A stretch of DNA of 64,000 nucleotides from a virus: IMG/VR virus record IMGVR_UViG_2974496990_000001, positions 47,606-111,605 of that record. One strand, 5' to 3'. Below are positions 27,105 to 31,519 of this stretch, piece by piece. The first letter of the stretch is position 1. Each line of letters opens with the position of its first letter. The notes below the pieces were generated by a model. The model worked only from the letters and a program-made list of their open reading frames with translations. It had not been told where the DNA came from and did no database searches. The translations under genes and the position numbers were made by a program.

Positions 27105-27134
27105 TTTGTTTCTCCAGTTCGTTAGTGTAGGAAC

Positions 27135-27164
27135 ATACTAACACGTCTTTTTATGGTTGTAAAC
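27135..27164 (-). promoter_or_regulatory. Early promoter
   Basis: GTTTACA-N17-TAGTAT. Confidence 0.8.
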
Positions 27165-27182
27165 ACCTGCCCCTAAATACCC

Positions 27183-27214
27183 GAAAGGGTCCCTCGGCAA
27201 AGAAGGACCCTTTC
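27183..27214 (-). terminator. Terminator at the end of the tRNA operon
   Basis: GAAAGGGTCC...GGACCCTTTC stem. Confidence 0.75.
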
Positions 27215-27298
27215 AAGTCGGCGCTGTACTTGGTCGCACCCAGAGGTAGCATTCGCCTTACGGTTTCACTTGCGATATCCACCGTCGTTCGTTTAAGT

Positions 27299-27429
27299 TG
27301 ATTTGTCATAGGGCTCGAACCTACACGCTTAGGTCTGTCGCACCGGCTTCCGCCTTACTCACCTGGGTACCAACCAGGGTTTCAAACAAGCTATTCCAGT
27401 CGTGTCTACCAAATTTCACCACACAAATC
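27299..27429 (-). ncRNA. tRNA-like stable RNA (RNA D / species 2-like)
   Basis: Acceptor stem GATTTGT/ACAAATC, D-arm GGTGAAATTTGGTAGACAC, T-arm GTAGG-TTCGAGC-CCTAT, enlarged centre; 131 nt. Confidence 0.7.
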
Positions 27430-27435
27430 ATAAAT

Positions 27436-27577
27436 TGTACGGAACGCCTGGATTCGAACCAGGTTACAGGGCAGTTGACGCTACACTGCATTTTGGATAA
27501 GGCCGTCAACGCATTTCCTCAACAGGAGCATCGTCAAATGCTTCATCCTGGAGAAAACTTGTCAAGTCCTCGAACCG
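27436..27577 (-). ncRNA. tRNA-like stable RNA (T4 RNA C / species 1-like)
   Basis: 5' CGGTTCGAGGA, internal GTAGCGTCAACT, 3' T-arm CCTGG-TTCGAAT-CCAGG; about 140 nt, like recalled T4 species 1 RNA. Confidence 0.75.
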
Positions 27578-27617
27578 ATAGTCAGCAATGCCTACTCAAA
27601 GAATAGGCATTAATAAC

Positions 27618-28034
27618 TTAGAAACCGAAACCTACACCGCCGCCATAAACAACTTCTTCGGAGGTAGCTGCTACAGAAACTTTAAATGCTGCTGGAGCAT
27701 CAGTTGGAGTGAAGTTCAGACCTGCTGCCAGGGCTTTTTCACCATCATAACCACCTACAGCAACACCAACAGAGAATTCGTGGCCGGGCACTGTAGGAAT
27801 ATTAGACATTGCTGCTACACCGGCAATACCAGCAGAAGCATGTTCTTGTGCTTTCTGAATTTTATGATCGGCGCGCTGATTAACATCACCAGTGATTACG
27901 CGATATTCGTCAGAGGCACGAATTTTTTCTTCTTTCTTAATTTGATCGATATCGATGTTAGGAATTTCGAATGCTGCCTGAGCAGTAAAAGAAGCACCAA
28001 CAATTGCGATAACAGCCAGAGTACGTTTCATCAT
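27618..28034 (-). CDS. YadA-like trimeric autotransporter anchor protein
   Basis: Signal peptide; SAGIAGVAAM..IP helix followed by four beta strands ending in Phe (GGGVGFGF). Confidence 0.85.
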   Translation of the reverse strand: MMKRTLAVIAIVGASFTAQAAFEIPNIDIDQIKKEEKIRASDEYRVITGDVNQRADHKIQKAQEHASAGIAGVAAMSNIPTVPGHEFSVGVAVGGYDGEKALAAGLNFTPTDAPAAFKVSVAATSEEVVYGGGVGFGF

Positions 28035-28072
28035 TTCATTTTACCTTTGTCATTGTTAACATTATATAGCCT

Positions 28073-28190
28073 CCGGGTCCAGAGAGTACAAACAAGTAGC
28101 TTGATGTAGAACACATGAAATATGTGGGAACAACGTCGCTTCGATTCCCGGCATTTACTTATGGAATCTCCCAATACTCATCTCTCTGAA
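28073..28190 (-). ncRNA. Candidate structured RNA 3' of tRNA-Asp
   Basis: Closing stem CAGAGAG/CTCTCTG, inner GGGAA/TTCCC and CACAT/ATGTG, possible CCGGG/CCCGG pseudoknot. Confidence 0.4.
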
Positions 28191-28209
28191 CTGCCTCGTT
28201 ACTTGAATT

Positions 28210-28285
28210 TGGCGGACCTAACGAGATTCGAACTCGTGACGCTCCCGTGACAGGGGAGTATTTTAACCGCTGAAACTATAGGTCC
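28210..28285 (-). tRNA. tRNA-Asp(GTC)
   Basis: Full cloverleaf, anticodon GTC, encoded CCA. Confidence 0.95.
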
Positions 28286-28456
28286 GGATTGCGCCCATCT
28301 TGTTGTGGTATTAGGCCATACCTTTCGGCTGGGTACTTCCAGGGAACAGAGCTTGGACGACTTAAGGGTGTACATCCATCTGGGCTTAGAGTCGTCTTAC
28401 AGACACGAGTATTATTCCAACTCTACCACATCACCAGCTTGGTCCCTCTTGTTTTC
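28286..28456 (-). ncRNA. Candidate pseudoknotted RNA between tRNAs
   Basis: Stems GACGAC/GTCGTC, AGGGAC/GTTCCCT and crossing TGTGGTA/TACCACA. Confidence 0.5.
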
Positions 28457-28505
28457 TGGCAGGCGCTTGAGGAATCCACCGCTCTACCAACTGAGCTAAG
28501 CACCT
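28457..28505 (-). pseudogene. tRNA with a 27-nt internal deletion (probably derived from tRNA-Trp)
   Basis: AGGTGCT acceptor, intact D-arm, GTGGATT-CCTC, AGCGCCT-G-CCA; 49 nt; anticodon 3' arm and most of the T-arm missing. Confidence 0.75.
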
Positions 28506-28508
28506 AAT

Positions 28509-28584
28509 TGGGGTGACCTATGGGACTTGAACCCATGACTACAAGAATCACAATCTTGAATTCTACCAACTGAATTAAGGCCAC
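28509..28584 (-). tRNA. tRNA-His(GTG)
   Basis: Cloverleaf, anticodon GTG, C73, CCA. Confidence 0.93.
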
Positions 28585-28617
28585 AGCAATGTTCACTCAA
28601 ATGAACGAACATTAATC

Positions 28618-28693
28618 TGGCGGATGTGCACGGATTCGAACCGCGGACCAATCACTTAACGGGCGACCGCTCTACCAACTGAGCTACACATCC
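28618..28693 (-). tRNA. tRNA-Asn(GTT)
   Basis: Cloverleaf, loop CC-GTT-AA, CCA. Confidence 0.9.
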
Positions 28694-28694
28694 T

Positions 28695-29222
28695 TTATCT
28701 TGCAGATTTTATTTTGTTTTCTTTAAATAGGTCGATAATAGAGTTAACATCGCCTTTAATCCACTCACCATCAGCATTTAAAGCTTTATGGAAAGAAAAC
28801 TCTTCTTCAAAACGTTTATCACTGAAATAGTAACATTCTAATTTATAATCACGTAAAGGGCAGTAGGATTGATAAGTGTTCAACCTATCATAAACATCCA
28901 CTGTAGAACCTATTTTATACCATCCTTCAAAAGCAGGATTAGTTACGCAATAAATGAAACCTTCTTTAATACCTTTAGAAGAATTACCATTTCTGAAATA
29001 CTTTACACGCAACAACGATAACTTGGTGAAGTTCACTTGTCGTGAAATCAATTTATCAGACTTTCGTGAAGCAGTGTCTGTATACTGGAGCTTAAAATTA
29101 GGATGAATATATTTGAAATAAATGTATTTAGCGAACTCAGTATTTATATCAAAATCAATCCCACTAATACCTTCTTCATTAAGATAAGCACTATATTGAT
29201 TAATTATTTTGGCCTTATCCAT
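28695..29222 (-). CDS. GIY-YIG (T5orf172-type) homing endonuclease, SegB-like position
   Basis: GFIYCVTN...WYKIG...DRL...GEW; AT-rich; inserted between tRNAs. Confidence 0.8.
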   Translation of the reverse strand: MDKAKIINQYSAYLNEEGISGIDFDINTEFAKYIYFKYIHPNFKLQYTDTASRKSDKLISRQVNFTKLSLLRVKYFRNGNSSKGIKEGFIYCVTNPAFEGWYKIGSTVDVYDRLNTYQSYCPLRDYKLECYYFSDKRFEEEFSFHKALNADGEWIKGDVNSIIDLFKENKIKSAR

Positions 29223-29238
29223 ATTCTTCTCATAAATT

Positions 29239-29316
29239 TGGTAGGACGTGAGGGATTTGAACCCATCGACATCTCGATTAAAAGTCGAGTGCTCTAACCA
29301 GCTGAGCTAACGTCCT
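29239..29316 (-). tRNA. tRNA-Lys(TTT)
   Basis: Cloverleaf, anticodon TTT, CCA; one extra nt in the T-stem region. Confidence 0.92.
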
Positions 29317-29328
29317 TCTTAATTCTAT

Positions 29329-29565
29329 TTATTCAGTATATCTCTTAAACTGTAAAGCAAAATCTTCATCAACTTTAGTTAAGAAGTGTCCTGCCTTAAA
29401 TCGTTTAGAGCTACCTTCAACTTCTACACCGTATCCGTTCTTACCAAGGACTCGACCAACTCGCATTTCGCCAGGGTCGCCCATTGAATTACAACGAACA
29501 CCGTACAGAACAAAATCATTTTCGAATACCGGAGCATTTTTCCGGTCAGTAATTAATTCTATCAT
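29329..29565 (-). CDS. Small SH3/KOW-like hypothetical protein
   Basis: 78-aa ORF; start site uncertain because it overlaps the putative Pm. Confidence 0.6.
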   Translation of the reverse strand: MIELITDRKNAPVFENDFVLYGVRCNSMGDPGEMRVGRVLGKNGYGVEVEGSSKRFKAGHFLTKVDEDFALQFKRYTE

Positions 29566-29582
29566 ATTAACCTTAAAGCATA
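29556..29582 (-). promoter_or_regulatory. Putative middle promoter
   Basis: TATGCTTTA-N12-TAGAAT. Confidence 0.55.
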
Positions 29583-30028
29583 TTACGTTTTAAGTTTTCA
29601 CGAACTCGATAAAGATTTGAACAGAATTCCTGTTCAGTCAAAACAGTTTCGTTCTTTTTCGACTTACCCATCGAGTGAGTTAATGTAGCGTTCTGCGTAG
29701 CCAGGAGCGCTCTCTGGAACCCTTCATTCAAGGCTAATTGATTATATGCTCGTTCGATAAGAAGCGTATAGGCGTCACTCTGGCGTTGCATAGGCACACC
29801 TTTCCAGTATAATGTCTGGAGTCGCCACCAATTCTTTTTCTTACCTTTGAACTTAGCTTTCTTACCAACTAGAGTACAAACATGTTCCTGCATTTCTACT
29901 GAAGAAAATTTCAGTGATTGCAAAAAGCCTTCCATCGAAGCACATTGTACACCGTCAATTTCAAAAGCATGAGGTGCAAAGTTACTTAATGCAGATGAAG
30001 GATAACCTGCACCAGAACCGATGTCCAT
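29573..30028 (-). CDS. NADAR-family (gp30.3-like) ADP-ribosylhydrolase
   Basis: ALSNF..HAFEIDG...SMEGFLQSLK...LYWKG...THSMG...LTEQEF, similar to recalled T4 gp30.3. Confidence 0.8.
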   Translation of the reverse strand: MDIGSGAGYPSSALSNFAPHAFEIDGVQCASMEGFLQSLKFSSVEMQEHVCTLVGKKAKFKGKKKNWWRLQTLYWKGVPMQRQSDAYTLLIERAYNQLALNEGFQRALLATQNATLTHSMGKSKKNETVLTEQEFCSNLYRVRENLKRNML

Positions 30029-30249
30029 TATTCATATTCCTTTTCAAGAAGGAAATAGTAGATATCATCATGGTCGGTGATAACGTTTTCAAACCAATGC
30101 TCGCGTTCTTTTACAAGAGTCGGTCCTGAAGTCCAATTCCCACATACAAAATATTGCACGCCTTCACGGTCTTGGAAGAATACGGCTTCAGAATGTCCGC
30201 CGTCTTTCCATTCGATAATTGCATGTCCTAATGGATATTTTTTAATCAT
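30028..30249 (-). CDS. Hypothetical protein
   Basis: 73 aa, GAGG SD. Confidence 0.75.
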   Translation of the reverse strand: MIKKYPLGHAIIEWKDGGHSEAVFFQDREGVQYFVCGNWTSGPTLVKEREHWFENVITDHDDIYYFLLEKEYE

Positions 30250-30269
30250 ATTTTCCTCACATTAAAAGT

Positions 30270-30379
30270 TCACAGCGGGGTGGATTCGAACCACCAATAT
30301 TAAGTCACTCATACACCAAGCATGCTAGGGCACTTACCCCGGACGGAATCGAACCGCATCTACAATACCTATCGCCGTG
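30270..30379 (-). ncRNA. tRNA-mimic RNA with two T-loop hairpins
   Basis: Acceptor CACGGCG/CGCTGTG, terminal T-arm GGTGG-TTCGAAT-CCACC, internal GCGG-TTCGATT-CCGT; no anticodon arm. Confidence 0.6.
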
Positions 30380-30381
30380 TC

Positions 30382-30458
30382 TGGTGGCCCCATCCGGACT
30401 TGAACCGGAAACCTACCAGTTATGAGCCGGGCGCTCTAACCAATTGAGCTATAGGGCC
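30382..30458 (-). tRNA. tRNA with CAT anticodon (Met, or more likely Ile2)
   Basis: Cloverleaf, CAT anticodon, GGCCCT acceptor, A73, CCA. Confidence 0.9.
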
Positions 30459-30919
30459 TGAATAATTTGTTTACCACGTTTAAATCTGAATGTGCTTGTC
30501 TGTGAATGACAATTCGGACATAATATCCTCAAATTAGAATACAAATGGTTTTTAGAATTACCATCAATATGGTCTAATTCACACTCTATAGGCTTAGAAT
30601 TCCATTCAGAAATTCCGCATTCTTCACATTCGTTCTTTTTAAGACCTTCAGAATACAATCGCTTTTTAAGTTTATACGATTGATATTGTGGATGAAGACC
30701 TTTCAAAATTTCATCAAGAGGTATTGTCTGTTTTGAATACTCAGACTTATCTCTTTTTATACCAGTTCGTCCTTTATTAGGTCGGTATAACCCATAATGA
30801 ACGGCATGTTGTTTAAATGTTCGGTGGTGGCATCCTATTAAAGAACAAGCTGCAGCCATAGAACAAGTAGAGTTTATAGCATGCTCTATTTCTTCTTTAC
30901 TATAAGTTAGTGTTTTCAT
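30449..30919 (-). CDS. HNH homing endonuclease with N-terminal HTH
   Basis: CEECG...ELDHIDG...NLRILCPNCHS. Confidence 0.9.
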   Translation of the reverse strand: MKTLTYSKEEIEHAINSTCSMAAACSLIGCHHRTFKQHAVHYGLYRPNKGRTGIKRDKSEYSKQTIPLDEILKGLHPQYQSYKLKKRLYSEGLKKNECEECGISEWNSKPIECELDHIDGNSKNHLYSNLRILCPNCHSQTSTFRFKRGKQIIQAL

Positions 30920-30923
30920 AATT

Positions 30924-31012
30924 TGGTACGGGTGACGAGATTCGAACTCGTAAGAGCTTAAGCCCTATGGCATTTTAAGTGCCATGCGTACTGCCAATAC
31001 CGCCACACCCGC
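30924..31012 (-). tRNA. tRNA-Leu(TAA)
   Basis: Class II cloverleaf with long variable arm, anticodon TAA, CCA. Confidence 0.92.
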
Positions 31013-31022
31013 GTTCTATTTC

Positions 31023-31215
31023 GAAAGCTCTCACTGGATATAACCCACTTGATTATATCTCTTACGTTTGTCTCGACTTCACAGATCGCGTATTCCATTT
31101 GTCGTCTAGAGAACTTTCTGAATAGAGGCCTCAAATTTTTAGAGAGGGTATAGGATTAGCTAGGCTATCCTTGAGGCCAGATTGGAGTCATAACTCCAGG
31201 TAGTAATAATACTAC
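31023..31215 (-). ncRNA. Hairpin-rich leader of the tRNA array (one or two candidate RNAs)
   Basis: Five visible stems, no ORF. Confidence 0.4.
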
Positions 31216-31216
31216 A

Positions 31217-31519
31217 TTAACGTAAAAGCATATTAATGTAAGTGTGTTGAATTCGTTTCAATTTCAGCTTATTTTCAAAGATGTCATATTCACGAACCTG
31301 CTTACCATCTTCAGAAATAAAGAAGGAAAGGTTCACACTATTGAATTCCCAACGAATGTCTTTAAGATGCACATCCGTGGAGCTACGCCCAATATCAACA
31401 CGTTCGACTTCATATAAGTATTCAGAGCCATTCTGCTCAATATGGCGTTTTGAAGCTTCTTGGTCAGGCAGATAACCATTTTCAGGCTTAGTAATCTGAG
31501 CAAATAATTTAATCATCAA
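31217..31519 (-). CDS. Hypothetical protein (trna.2 position)
   Basis: 100-aa ORF. Confidence 0.7.
   Translation of the reverse strand: MMIKLFAQITKPENGYLPDQEASKRHIEQNGSEYLYEVERVDIGRSSTDVHLKDIRWEFNSVNLSFFISEDGKQVREYDIFENKLKLKRIQHTYINMLLR

Follow-up and report, generated by a model that had tools for sequence, protein, structure and literature searches.

Conserved structured RNAs among the tRNA genes of a T4-like phage: a probable expansion of the T4 stable RNA set

The closest described counterpart of the locus analyzed here is the tRNA region of bacteriophage T4, in which genes trna.4, trna.3 and trna.2 and the tRNAs are followed by rnaD and rnaC, which encode the species 2 and species 1 RNAs. 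The only convergent mutation in a T4-like phage adapting to a semi-permissive host lies in a relative of rnaD (PMC12685909). The same neighbourhood and gene order are found in the 64-kb stretch of DNA examined here (the window), whose nearest database records are Kanagawavirus phages, identifying the region as the tRNA region of a T4-like phage. The hosts of the phage are of the Klebsiella/Enterobacter type, the public runs containing the phage are metagenome contigs, and every feature of the tRNA region is on the minus strand. We consider it probable that this region is a T4-like tRNA operon carrying an expanded complement of 'stable RNAs' that act as tRNA mimics; judged from sequence comparison, the set consists of rnaC and rnaD orthologues, four further families (U2, U5, U7 and U8), a leader, and a broken tRNA-Trp.

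A preliminary description of the region reported six intact tRNAs, and exactly six tRNAs, and no other element, pass ARAGORN or Rfam thresholds in the window, with the same six and no more in the complete 177.6-kb genome. They are tRNA-Leu(UAA) (30924..31012), a tRNA(CAU) of Met or Ile2 type (30382..30458), tRNA-Lys(UUU) (29239..29316), tRNA-Asn(GUU) (28618..28693), tRNA-His(GUG) (28509..28584) and tRNA-Asp(GUC) (28210..28285). Phages KLB31 and Kosakonia 305 have an unrelated element of about 90 nt in place of tRNA-Asp. The region is a mosaic, with the tRNA-Asp insertion, two alternative tRNA(CAU) genes, and an HNH homing-endonuclease-type ORF (30449..30919; Pfam PF01844) between tRNA-Leu and tRNA(CAU), which is absent at the same site from KLB31, the nearest relative, as seen by a break in the alignment. 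A second ORF, with a signal peptide and a YadA-type membrane anchor (27618..28034; Pfam PF03895), lies between U5 and rnaC. The T-loop motif GGTTCRANYCC occurs eight times in the window against 0.28 expected by chance; all are minus-strand and confined to 27311-30406, with four occurrences in tRNAs and four in non-tRNA units.

The preliminary description also named eight folded spacer units (27216, 27299, 27436, 28073, 28286, 28457, 30270 and 31023), all of which do mark genuine elements in non-coding gaps. As a count of structured non-tRNA units the figure stands in part: six are conserved folded RNAs, whereas that at 28457 is a broken tRNA and that at 31023 a leader with little covariation. 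Acceptor stems are present in four units as described, those at 30270, 28457, 27436 and 27299. When folded singly, the units at 30270, 28286, 28073 and 27299 have energies no better than those of shuffled sequences (z from -0.15 to +0.98), and only those at 27436, 27216 and 31023 stand out; the evidence for structure is therefore covariation rather than energy. Compensatory base changes are far above both shuffled and slid controls in five families (U2, U5, U6, U7 and U8), with a few such pairs in the rnaD relative, U4; across U2, U5, U7 and U8, 93-98% of cells are paired, compared with 23-59% when the partner strand is slid, and 9-18 pairs have changed on both sides. Each alignment comprises 8-11 related sequences and the shuffle control disregards their relatedness; the U2 alignment (A9) was fitted to its model (R1), and for the other families a single alignment served both to predict the structure and to count its pairs. 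Rfam has no match for any of the conserved structured families, and no description of U2 or U7 was found in the databases and papers searched.

Two of the units belong to T4 families, a relationship that the preliminary description had missed. U6 (27438..27578) is an orthologue of rnaC, identified by blastn to T4 rnaC. Its entire length aligns with the T4 RNA, and the structure is common to both. U6 combines an acceptor stem bearing a conserved tandem U-U mismatch with a T-arm, a 9-bp arm capped by a 6-nt loop, and an extended 5' domain. In alignment A12, which includes T4 and VR25, 98.1% of cells are paired, and 18 of 39 pairs have changed on both sides (0 of 500 shuffles). The family is present in 669 phage records, and in RB68 and RB59 it is annotated as rnaC. 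U4 (28286..28456), assigned by profile and alignments, has the invariant motifs and closing helix of rnaD, with a core helix GUCGUC/GGCGC, and its covarying pairs lie in the closing helix and the 5' helices. A profile of this family built without T4 matches the annotated T4 rnaD locus (E 0.01) and VR25 (E 9e-6), together with the corresponding site after the tRNAs in VR5 and CkP1. Unlike its T4 relative, U4 carries a 5' extension of about 55-75 nt, and no gap separates it from its neighbours, the CCA of the tRNA-Trp remnant on one side and the 5' end of tRNA-Asp on the other. The locus departs from T4 also in that rnaD and rnaC are not adjacent, with tRNA-Asp, U5 and an ORF intervening, and in its four further structured RNAs. 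The proposal that the set is larger than that of T4 holds, since the families of the units at 28073 and 27299 (U5 and U7) are missing from the T4 and VR5 tRNA regions; of the four further families, these were the two whose profiles were run against T4, and neither gave a hit in its tRNA region.

U2 is a 110-nt tRNA-shaped RNA (30270..30379) that starts 2 nt past the CCA of tRNA(CAU). It has a 7-bp acceptor stem (CACGGCG/CGCUGUG) with discriminator A and no CCA, a terminal T-arm (GGUGG-UUCGAAU-CCACC), and, at the place of the D-arm, a second T-loop hairpin (GCGG-UUCGAUU-CCGU) followed by two more hairpins; neither Rfam nor ARAGORN matches it. In A9, 93.5% of cells are paired and 9 of 26 pairs have changed on both sides, values reached by 0-1 of 500 shuffles and compared with 39-59% pairing when slid. 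U2 is found in 37 phage records across phage families, including Dhakavirus, Karamvirus and the N4-like Gamaleyavirus, yet it is confined to enterobacterial phages. It follows tRNA(CAU) here, lies between tRNA-Met and tRNA-Arg in VR5 and between ORFs in CkP1, and sits in an unannotated 1.9-kb gap in N4-like phage G7C, which has nothing but the RNA itself in common with this locus. Identity between Straboviridae and Schitoviridae copies is 76-82%, over exactly the length of the RNA.

In U7, the second tRNA-shaped RNA (130 nt; 27299..27430), the acceptor stem pairs 27422-27428 with 27301-27307, the D-arm is of class II type and the T-arm occupies 27308-27324. A three-helix arm replaces the 5-bp anticodon stem and ends in a 5-bp stem and an invariant 7-nt loop, UUGGUAC (27362-27378), that matches the UUGGUAA of E. 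coli tRNA-Thr(GGU) at six of seven positions. This loop and the large internal loops are invariant and the stems covary: in alignment A11, covering three genera, 98.5% of cells are paired (26-45% when slid) and 12 of 33 pairs have changed on both sides (0 of 500 shuffles). U7 is 100% identical to its counterpart in IME523, where flanking genes are 73-93% identical, and 99-100% identical to those of relatives with flanking genes at 72-94%. It follows rnaC here and heads a tRNA trio in Marfavirus and Jiaodavirus, and its annotations elsewhere are inconsistent (tRNA-Ser, Thr, Phe-pseudo, OTHER).

U5 (28075..28195) is a multi-helix RNA with a 12-bp closing helix (28182-28195 with 28075-28086), a hairpin whose 14-nt loop, AUAAGUAAAUGCCG, is conserved, and an inserted hairpin that varies. 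Pairing in alignment A14 is 97.9% (23-54% when slid), and both partners have changed in 10 of 27 pairs, a level that none of 500 shuffles reached. Among its 221 phage records it precedes an ORF here and tRNA-Met in IME523 and CkP1, occupying the gap between tRNA-Asp and tRNA-Met in the latter. U8 (27220..27285) is made up of two stems, 27260-27285 and 27220-27257, both of which are conserved, as is the loop CCUCUGGGUGC; 96.1% of cells are paired and 9 of 23 pairs have changed on both sides in alignment A15, which contains essentially two sequence lineages. It is invariably the last element ahead of a very stable, terminator-like hairpin followed by UAUUU (27184..27214), whose stem covaries (MFE z -4.1 for 27175-27298) and which is not called by a terminator scan because its U-run is short. 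The next promoter-like site, a pattern match, is GTTTACA-17-TAGTAT at 27135-27163. At the other end of the region, the structured 5' leader U1 (31013..31216; MFE z -3.4) lies upstream of tRNA-Leu and folds into two hairpins, one small and the other formed by GGCCUCAA/UUGAGGCC, plus a long helix that closes around a variable insert, with a MotA-box-like middle-promoter motif, likewise a pattern match, just upstream at about 31206-31235. U1 has only two covarying pairs and is 96% identical to its IME523 counterpart, compared with 73% for the upstream ORF.

Aligned with the tRNA-Trp that remains intact in KLB31 and Kosakonia phage 305, U3 (28457..28505) proves to be a recently broken tRNA-Trp(CCA): a 27-nt deletion between two GATTCC repeats has taken out the anticodon and variable loops together with the 5' half of the T-arm, leaving the acceptor stem, D-arm and CCA. 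As a designed unit it is therefore rejected, and its origin as a deletion remnant had also gone unrecognised in the preliminary description. U3 is exactly what would be expected if the spacers were decaying tRNA genes and recombination scars of homing-endonuclease traffic in a hypervariable region, and the mosaic structure, the class II tRNA-like 5' part of U7 and the 'tRNA with intron' models into which relaxed ARAGORN forces U2 and U7 fit the same account. For the set as a whole, however, we regard such debris as highly improbable. The compensatory changes in five families, together with conservation above that of flanking genes, imply selection on RNA structure, covariation refutes this origin for U2, U5, U6 and U7, and the similarity of U2 between Straboviridae and Schitoviridae over its exact length would be unexpected of debris. 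Poor conservation had been offered as grounds for refuting the preliminary description, but the units prove to be conserved across phage genera with compensatory changes, the 27299 unit and the 31023 leader being better conserved than neighbouring genes.

The elements exist, are conserved across genera, have helices kept by compensatory changes, and directly abut tRNA ends at flush junctions. Excision with the tRNAs followed by persistence as stable tRNA mimics is the most likely course. The units would be co-transcribed with the tRNAs and released by host tRNA-processing enzymes: RNase P would presumably cut where each tRNA or tRNA-shaped acceptor/T-arm minihelix has its 5' end, and the sequence behind each tRNA would undergo 3' trimming; in rnaC, U2 and U7 the minihelix may serve as a processing and stability handle. 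These three have no encoded CCA, so a mature tRNA-like 3' end would depend on trimming and CCA addition, both assumed here. An alternative is that the units act only in cis, as processing or insulation elements of a long polycistronic precursor, guiding RNase P/E/III cuts, shielding neighbouring mRNAs and tRNAs from exonucleases or terminating the operon, and are functionless once released. Each unit does adjoin a tRNA, an ORF start or the operon end, U1 is a leader, U8 always precedes the terminal hairpin, and the homing-endonuclease-type and other ORFs among the tRNAs need separating, but we think a purely cis role quite unlikely: the same modules (U2, U5 and U7) occur in quite different contexts among phages, the long invariant loops of U5 (14 nt), U8 and U7 (internal) exceed what a cleavage site or stability hairpin needs, and T4 RNAC accumulates, since it is detected by northern blot.

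Acting in trans, the RNAs would serve as tRNA mimics, engaging host tRNA-binding proteins while taking no part in decoding. U7 would present an anticodon loop of the tRNA-Thr(GGU) type, carried by an arm that is too long for the ribosome, and U2 has two T-loops and lacks an anticodon arm; judged by their arm lengths, U2 and U7 are predicted to be unable to span the ribosomal A site in the manner of normal tRNAs. The preliminary description went further, reading the units as an arsenal of decoys or inhibitors directed against host tRNA-targeting defences, tRNA sensors or repair enzymes. Candidate targets of such an arsenal would be anticodon nucleases such as PrrC, RloC, PARIS AriB, retron-associated tRNases and Schlafen-type or HEPN tRNases. 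Its observation is confirmed, and its interpretation is partly supported: discrete structured RNAs abut tRNA ends and several are tRNA-shaped, and a decoy or anti-defence role is plausible. The nearly host-like, invariant loop of U7 on a covarying stem suggests such a role, as does the distribution of U2, which crosses families within enterobacterial phages as expected of a host-directed accessory function. The convergent mutation in an rnaD relative points the same way. Transfer RNAs of the His, Asn, Asp, Tyr, Lys and Arg classes are known targets of anticodon nucleases, and the real tRNAs here and in relatives fall in these classes. As the main explanation, however, an anti-defence arsenal seems to us unlikely: no analysis here ties any unit to a defence system, our literature search found neither a nuclease specific for tRNA-Thr(GGU) nor a phage RNA decoy of this type, U2 and rnaC have no recognisable anticodon loop, and decades have passed without a reported role for T4 rnaC and rnaD.

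Beyond T4, the stable tRNA mimics proposed here can be compared with three known systems. Phage tRNAs that replace or evade nuclease-cut host tRNAs (for example anticodon-loop variants, PMC10264068) occupy the same type of locus and share the presumed arena of host tRNA-targeting immunity, but they are functional decoding tRNAs, whereas U2 and U7 fail the tRNA models of ARAGORN and Rfam. The mascRNA and viral 3' tRNA-like structures similarly rely on a tRNA-shaped fold that attracts RNase P and CCA-adding enzymes and sets the ends of the RNA, but these elements come from eukaryotes or plant viruses and are attached to a long RNA; the sole Rfam mascRNA match here (20 bits) is to the true tRNA(CAU). 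The bacterial YrlA and Y RNAs bound by Ro60/Rsr are likewise non-decoding copies of the acceptor/T-arm/D-arm part of tRNA that are handled by tRNA enzymes (PMC4201824). The only Rfam match to YrlA in the region scores 23 bits, where the threshold is 69, and covers the junction of tRNA-His with tRNA-Trp. YrlA builds its Ro-binding stem from the 5' and 3' ends and has a closed tRNA-like acceptor end, whereas the ends of U2, U6 and U7 lie at the acceptor stem.

The 4-kb stretch at window positions 27216-31215 corresponds to the tRNA region in a T4-like phage, and all of its features are encoded on the minus strand. The source genome is a complete virus record of 177.6 kb; the nearest public record, Klebsiella phage vB_KM5a1-KLB31 (hereafter KLB31), is 97.5% identical across 80% of the stretch, and other near records come from Kosakonia phage 305 and a number of Enterobacter phages. 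Every one of these, KLB31 included, belongs to the Straboviridae, genus Kanagawavirus. The upstream gene order (57B, ip genes, trna.4, trna.3, trna.2) is that of T4, where the stable RNAs rnaD and rnaC come next after the tRNA cluster. Six tRNAs (Leu, CAU, Lys, Asn, His and Asp), and nothing else, are called in the region by ARAGORN and by Rfam at gathering thresholds, and the same six are the total for the whole genome. ARAGORN reports no tmRNA in either the window or the genome, and the combination of a tRNA-like domain with a tag frame was not found.

Several protein-coding genes, all on the minus strand, are interspersed with the tRNAs. An HNH endonuclease-type ORF (30449-30919) lies between tRNA-Leu and tRNA(CAU) and is missing there in KLB31, and an ORF with a T5orf172 domain, related to GIY-YIG (28695-29222), lies between tRNA-Lys and tRNA-Asn; their interleaving with tRNAs brings to mind T4 SegB, through which the tRNA region is preferentially inherited. 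Also within the region are a member of the gp30.3/NADAR family (29573-30028; PF08010, E 8e-57), three small ORFs among the tRNAs and, inside the tRNA/small-RNA operon, an ORF of 138 aa whose product has a signal peptide and an outer-membrane anchor of YadA type (27618-28034; PF03895). The latter is also found in KLB31 and Kosakonia 305 and is missing at this site in IME523-type relatives, where a tRNA-Met follows the small-RNA unit U5. The tRNAs themselves vary among relatives. At the position of tRNA(CAU) (30382-30458) two very different genes alternate, a standard-looking version in the window and IME523, and a version with an unusual D-arm, annotated as tRNA-Ile2, in KLB31, Kosakonia and ZX14. 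None of the closest relatives has the tRNA-Asp of this genome (28210-28285); in KLB31 and Kosakonia 305 the site is occupied by an unrelated element of ~90 nt (GUAGACCACGG...CCAACCUAC), which may be yet another structured unit.

Non-coding gaps remain at 31013-31216, 30250-30381, 28286-28508, 28035-28209 and 27105-27617, and all eight structured units named in the preliminary description, here U1 to U8 from 5' to 3' on the minus strand, fall inside them. That description regarded these spacers as folded, and folding energy agrees for the units at 27436 (U6), 27216 (U8 together with a following hairpin) and 31023 (U1); four others are unexceptional (single-sequence z of -0.15 to +0.98), so the case for structure must come from comparison. 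Across the 64-kb window the T-loop motif GGTTCRANYCC is present eight times versus 0.28 expected by chance. All of these copies are on the minus strand within the tRNA region, divided equally between tRNAs and non-tRNA units (four each). Covariation analysis, which had been proposed as a check, reveals compensated changes on both sides of helices in U2, U5, U6, U7 and U8, in alignments of 8-11 sequences each that are related to one another and on which, with the exception of U2, the structures were both predicted and counted. Rfam searches of the region and of the loci in phages G7C and EC1-UPM at a permissive threshold assigned no family, and pattern scans of IMG/VR, which recovered only 3-5 loci each, added little beyond GenBank phages. 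A Marfavirus-like contig contains U1, U4, U5, U6, U7 and U8 in the same order.

By sequence comparison U6 (27438-27578) is an orthologue of T4 rnaC and belongs to its family. A blastn comparison with T4 rnaC aligns 67 nt at 78%, together with 12 nt at the 5' end. U6 also aligns end to end with the T4 and VR25 RNAs and is placed distally in the tRNA cluster, as expected of rnaC. It has in common with T4 rnaC a T-arm, a long 5' domain and an acceptor stem with a tandem U-U mismatch, which is kept while one flanking pair is A-U in T4 and G-C in the window. Among the 39 pairs of the consensus, 18 are changed on both sides yet remain paired across T4, VR25, Kanagawavirus and Marfavirus sequences; 98.1% of cells are paired, versus 38-51% when the pairing partner is slid along the alignment, and 0 of 500 shuffles, a control that does not preserve the relatedness among sequences, reach the observed values. 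Related sequences are found in 669 phage records, some of them annotated as rnaC. We note that the 5' domain (27500-27578 in the window) exists in two versions that look unrelated in sequence and are alike in fold: the T4 version in IME523, MY742 and ZX14, and another in the window, KLB31, Kosakonia 305 and Marfavirus. The rnaC of the IME523 group has a non-canonical T-loop, UGCAUGC.

U4 (28286-28456) appears to be a divergent member of the rnaD family, with a resemblance that is weak but position-exact. A profile from which T4 was excluded recovers the T4 rnaD interval as annotated (E 0.01 in about 0.2 Mb), and with it the corresponding site behind the tRNAs in VR25 (E 9e-6), VR5 and CkP1. 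The blocks AAGUCGUC, UCCCUG and GGCGC are invariant between U4 and T4 rnaD; the helix GUCGUC/GGCGC contains one covarying pair, and the 5' helix covaries between GAGGG/CCCUU and GCGAG/CUCGC. U4 begins directly behind the CCA of a tRNA-Trp remnant, and the T4 and VR5 rnaD genes directly behind tRNA-Arg. T4 rnaD lacks the 5' extension of U4 and adjoins rnaC, whereas tRNA-Asp, U5 and the YadA-anchor ORF lie between U4 and its rnaC.

The remnant is U3 (28457-28505), which had been listed among the folded units and turns out to be a recently broken tRNA rather than a conserved element. Its sequence marks it as a tRNA-Trp pseudogene with a recent lesion: 27 nt are missing between two GATTCC repeats, taking with them the anticodon loop and half of the T-arm, and tRNA-Trp(CCA) is intact at this site in KLB31 and Kosakonia 305. 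A tRNA interrupted by a group I intron (28286-28508) is rejected, as there is no Rfam intron match and the supposed 5' 'half' proves to be the deleted tRNA-Trp, which ends in a CCA of its own. A YrlA/Y RNA (RF02553) scores 23 bits against a gathering threshold of 69 and extends across a tRNA junction, and the sole mascRNA match, at 20 bits, is to the true tRNA(CAU).

U2 (30270-30379) is a tRNA-shaped RNA of 110 nt, with a 7-bp acceptor stem, a terminal T-arm and two further hairpins. The acceptor stem is stacked on the T-arm with its T-loop, with one extra nucleotide between these helices, a second T-loop hairpin occupies the D-arm position, and there is no anticodon arm at all. As canonical tRNAs, neither U2 nor U7 is called by ARAGORN or matched by the Rfam tRNA model at E up to 10; only relaxed ARAGORN settings force them, by inventing 'introns' of 22 and 42 nt, and both lack a 5-bp anticodon stem with a 7-nt loop at the standard distance. 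In the U2 alignment, which was guided by and fitted to its own model (n=11), 93.5% of cells are paired versus 39-59% in the slid control, and nine of 26 pairs, spread over all five helices, are changed on both sides.

The distribution of U2 is patchy. There is one copy in this genome, and it is present in KLB31 and missing in most Kanagawavirus relatives, which have a tRNA-Arg there; it is also found in Karamvirus CkP1 and in Dhakavirus VR5 and VR25, between tRNA-Met and tRNA-Arg. The presence of both side by side in VR5 disposes of the idea, raised by the alignment, that U2 is a degenerate replacement of tRNA-Arg. U2 is further found at 76-82% identity in N4-like Gamaleyavirus podophages (G7C, pSb-1, EC1-UPM, PhAPEC5 and others), inside an unannotated non-coding stretch of ~1.9 kb, and its flanks there have nothing else in common with those at the T4-like loci. 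Carriage by one HNH endonuclease between T4-like and N4-like phages was rejected because the two HNH proteins share a motif only and the flanking DNA is not in common. A pattern-level scan of 185,579 bacterial species genomes found no U2, and a bacterial origin was discarded at that level; Rfam contains no match to it, including at the G7C and EC1-UPM loci. In G7C (L010:1966-3892) and EC1-UPM (L023), the ~1.9-kb stretch lies between gp47.2 and the virion RNA polymerase gene, is 78-96% conserved between the two phages, and gives weak tRNA/tmRNA-like Rfam signals (permuted tmRNA, 33.7 bits); it probably holds further small RNAs.

U7 (27299-27430) is 130 nt long and tRNA-shaped. It combines an acceptor stem with a D-arm of class II type and a T-arm bearing a T-loop; the anticodon stem gives way to a three-helix arm, tipped by a 5-bp stem under an invariant loop of 7 nt, UUGGUAC. 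Six of these seven positions are the same in the anticodon loop of E. coli tRNA-Thr(GGU), UUGGUAA. As modelled, U7 is unable to decode, because the arm that carries this loop is about three times as long as normal. Twelve of 33 pairs are changed on both sides, 98.5% of cells are paired versus 26-45% slid, and the terminal stem has three compensated versions (CCUGG/CCAGG, CUCGG/CCGAG and CCCGA/UCGGG) around a constant loop. U7 is found in 61 records of Kanagawavirus, Marfavirus and Jiaodavirus phages of Klebsiella, Enterobacter, Raoultella and Kosakonia, and is 99-100% identical to its counterparts in relatives whose flanking genes are 72-94% identical. It is visible in GenBank solely as inconsistent tRNA calls, being annotated as tRNA-Ser, tRNA-Thr, a tRNA-Phe pseudogene or "tRNA-OTHER", or left unannotated. 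In Jiaodavirus ValerieMcCarty05 a YbiA-like/NADAR gene ends 10 nt before U7, so that the two are neighbours in a second genus. On these structural models, U2 and U7 are best described as tRNA mimics.

U5 (28075-28195) is a multi-helix RNA, present in 221 phage records, with a 12-bp closing helix, a hairpin whose 14-nt loop is conserved, and an inserted hairpin that varies. Ten of its 27 pairs are changed on both sides and 97.9% of cells are paired; the closing helix CAGAGAG/CUCUCUG becomes UAAAGAG/CUCUUUA in Marfavirus-like contigs. U5 occupies the gap between tRNA-Asp and tRNA-Met in CkP1, and lies between the rnaD relative and tRNA-Met in IME523, and is thus not a leader tied to the YadA-anchor gene. 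U8 (27220-27285) is a pair of stems with two sequence versions that compensate each other, represented by only two lineages; it is followed by a very stable hairpin (27184-27214), and in Marfavirus and Jiaodavirus the element stands at the end of a tRNA trio. At the opposite end, U1 (31013-31216) is a conserved leader before tRNA-Leu, 96% identical to IME523 versus 73% for the upstream ORF, with a long closing helix around a replaceable insert and almost no covariation. MotA-box-like motifs (ATATGCTTTTA, ATATGCTTTA, TTTTGCTTTA) with -10-like hexamers are found on the minus strand at 31206-31235 before U1, at 29575-29590 before the ORF at 29329-29565, and at 29335-29365 before tRNA-Lys. These pattern matches suggest several middle promoters within the cluster; in a promoter/terminator consensus scan, counts were not above those in shuffles.

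The six tRNAs are thus interleaved with one tRNA remnant and six families of conserved structured RNA, and the junctions are flush: U2 begins 2 nt after a CCA, U5 fits between tRNAs in CkP1, and U4 fills the whole interval between the CCA of the tRNA-Trp remnant and the start of tRNA-Asp. Public sequencing runs that contain the sequence are metagenome contigs with small shares, a kind of data that does not report on RNA ends or levels. The region would be transcribed as long precursors, for which the candidate marks are pattern matches only (MotA-like boxes before U1 and tRNA-Lys, and a hairpin plus early-type promoter at the distal end), and the RNAs would be released by the enzymes that mature tRNAs. 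An acceptor/T-arm minihelix is the minimal substrate of RNase P and the CCA-adding enzyme, and in rnaC, U2 and U7 it could provide defined ends and tRNA-like stability. As the same modules recur in different genomic contexts and have long invariant loops, a trans-acting role in binding a partner appears more likely than a purely local one. Candidate partners include tRNA-processing and tRNA-modifying enzymes, ThrRS for U7, and host tRNA-targeting nucleases.

The last of these partners corresponds to the original proposal that the tRNA-shaped RNAs are decoys against host tRNA-targeting nucleases, an attractive idea that we nevertheless consider improbable. The anticodon-type loop of U7 would suit such a role, and anticodon nucleases are known to attack the tRNA classes that the true tRNAs here represent. 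Likewise, U2 is limited by host range yet crosses phage families, and when a T4-like phage was evolved on a semi-permissive host the sole convergent mutation was in an rnaD relative (PMC12685909). None of these points is direct evidence for decoys, and our literature search found neither a nuclease described for tRNA-Thr(GGU) nor a precedent for a phage RNA decoy of a tRNA-like kind. The fuller version, in which U2 and U7, and perhaps U5, found phage-specific families of tRNA mimics directed in trans against host tRNA immunity or enzymes, with U2 mobile between T4-like and N4-like coliphages and U7 a bait displaying the tRNA-Thr(GGU) loop, is held with similarly low expectation; if true, it would be the first functional handle on T4 rnaC and rnaD.

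Covarying helices, natural presence/absence variants and invariant loops, the last marking likely contact surfaces, give comparative leverage on an old question: T4 RNAs C and D were already known in the 1970s and are still without a reported role (PMC3014915, PMC9697503). They now appear as part of a larger modular repertoire of structured RNAs inside phage tRNA operons, in which clear structural selection acts on four or more additional families; one (U2) is common to unrelated phage families and another (U7) is repeatedly mis-annotated as tRNAs of differing identity. These are well-defined targets for asking whether phages contest the host tRNA pool with RNA mimics as well as with replacement tRNAs, and are of consequence for phage annotation pipelines, which at present either skip such RNAs or label them as tRNA-Ser, Thr, Phe or "other". 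U2, U5, U7 and U8 have no Rfam family, and no description of them was found in the literature; U5 and U7 have no profile match in the tRNA regions of T4 or VR5. The set is therefore larger than that of T4, as had been claimed, and with rnaC and rnaD known and the four others without a family, the system is a new, enlarged variant of the T4-type stable RNAs of the tRNA operon.
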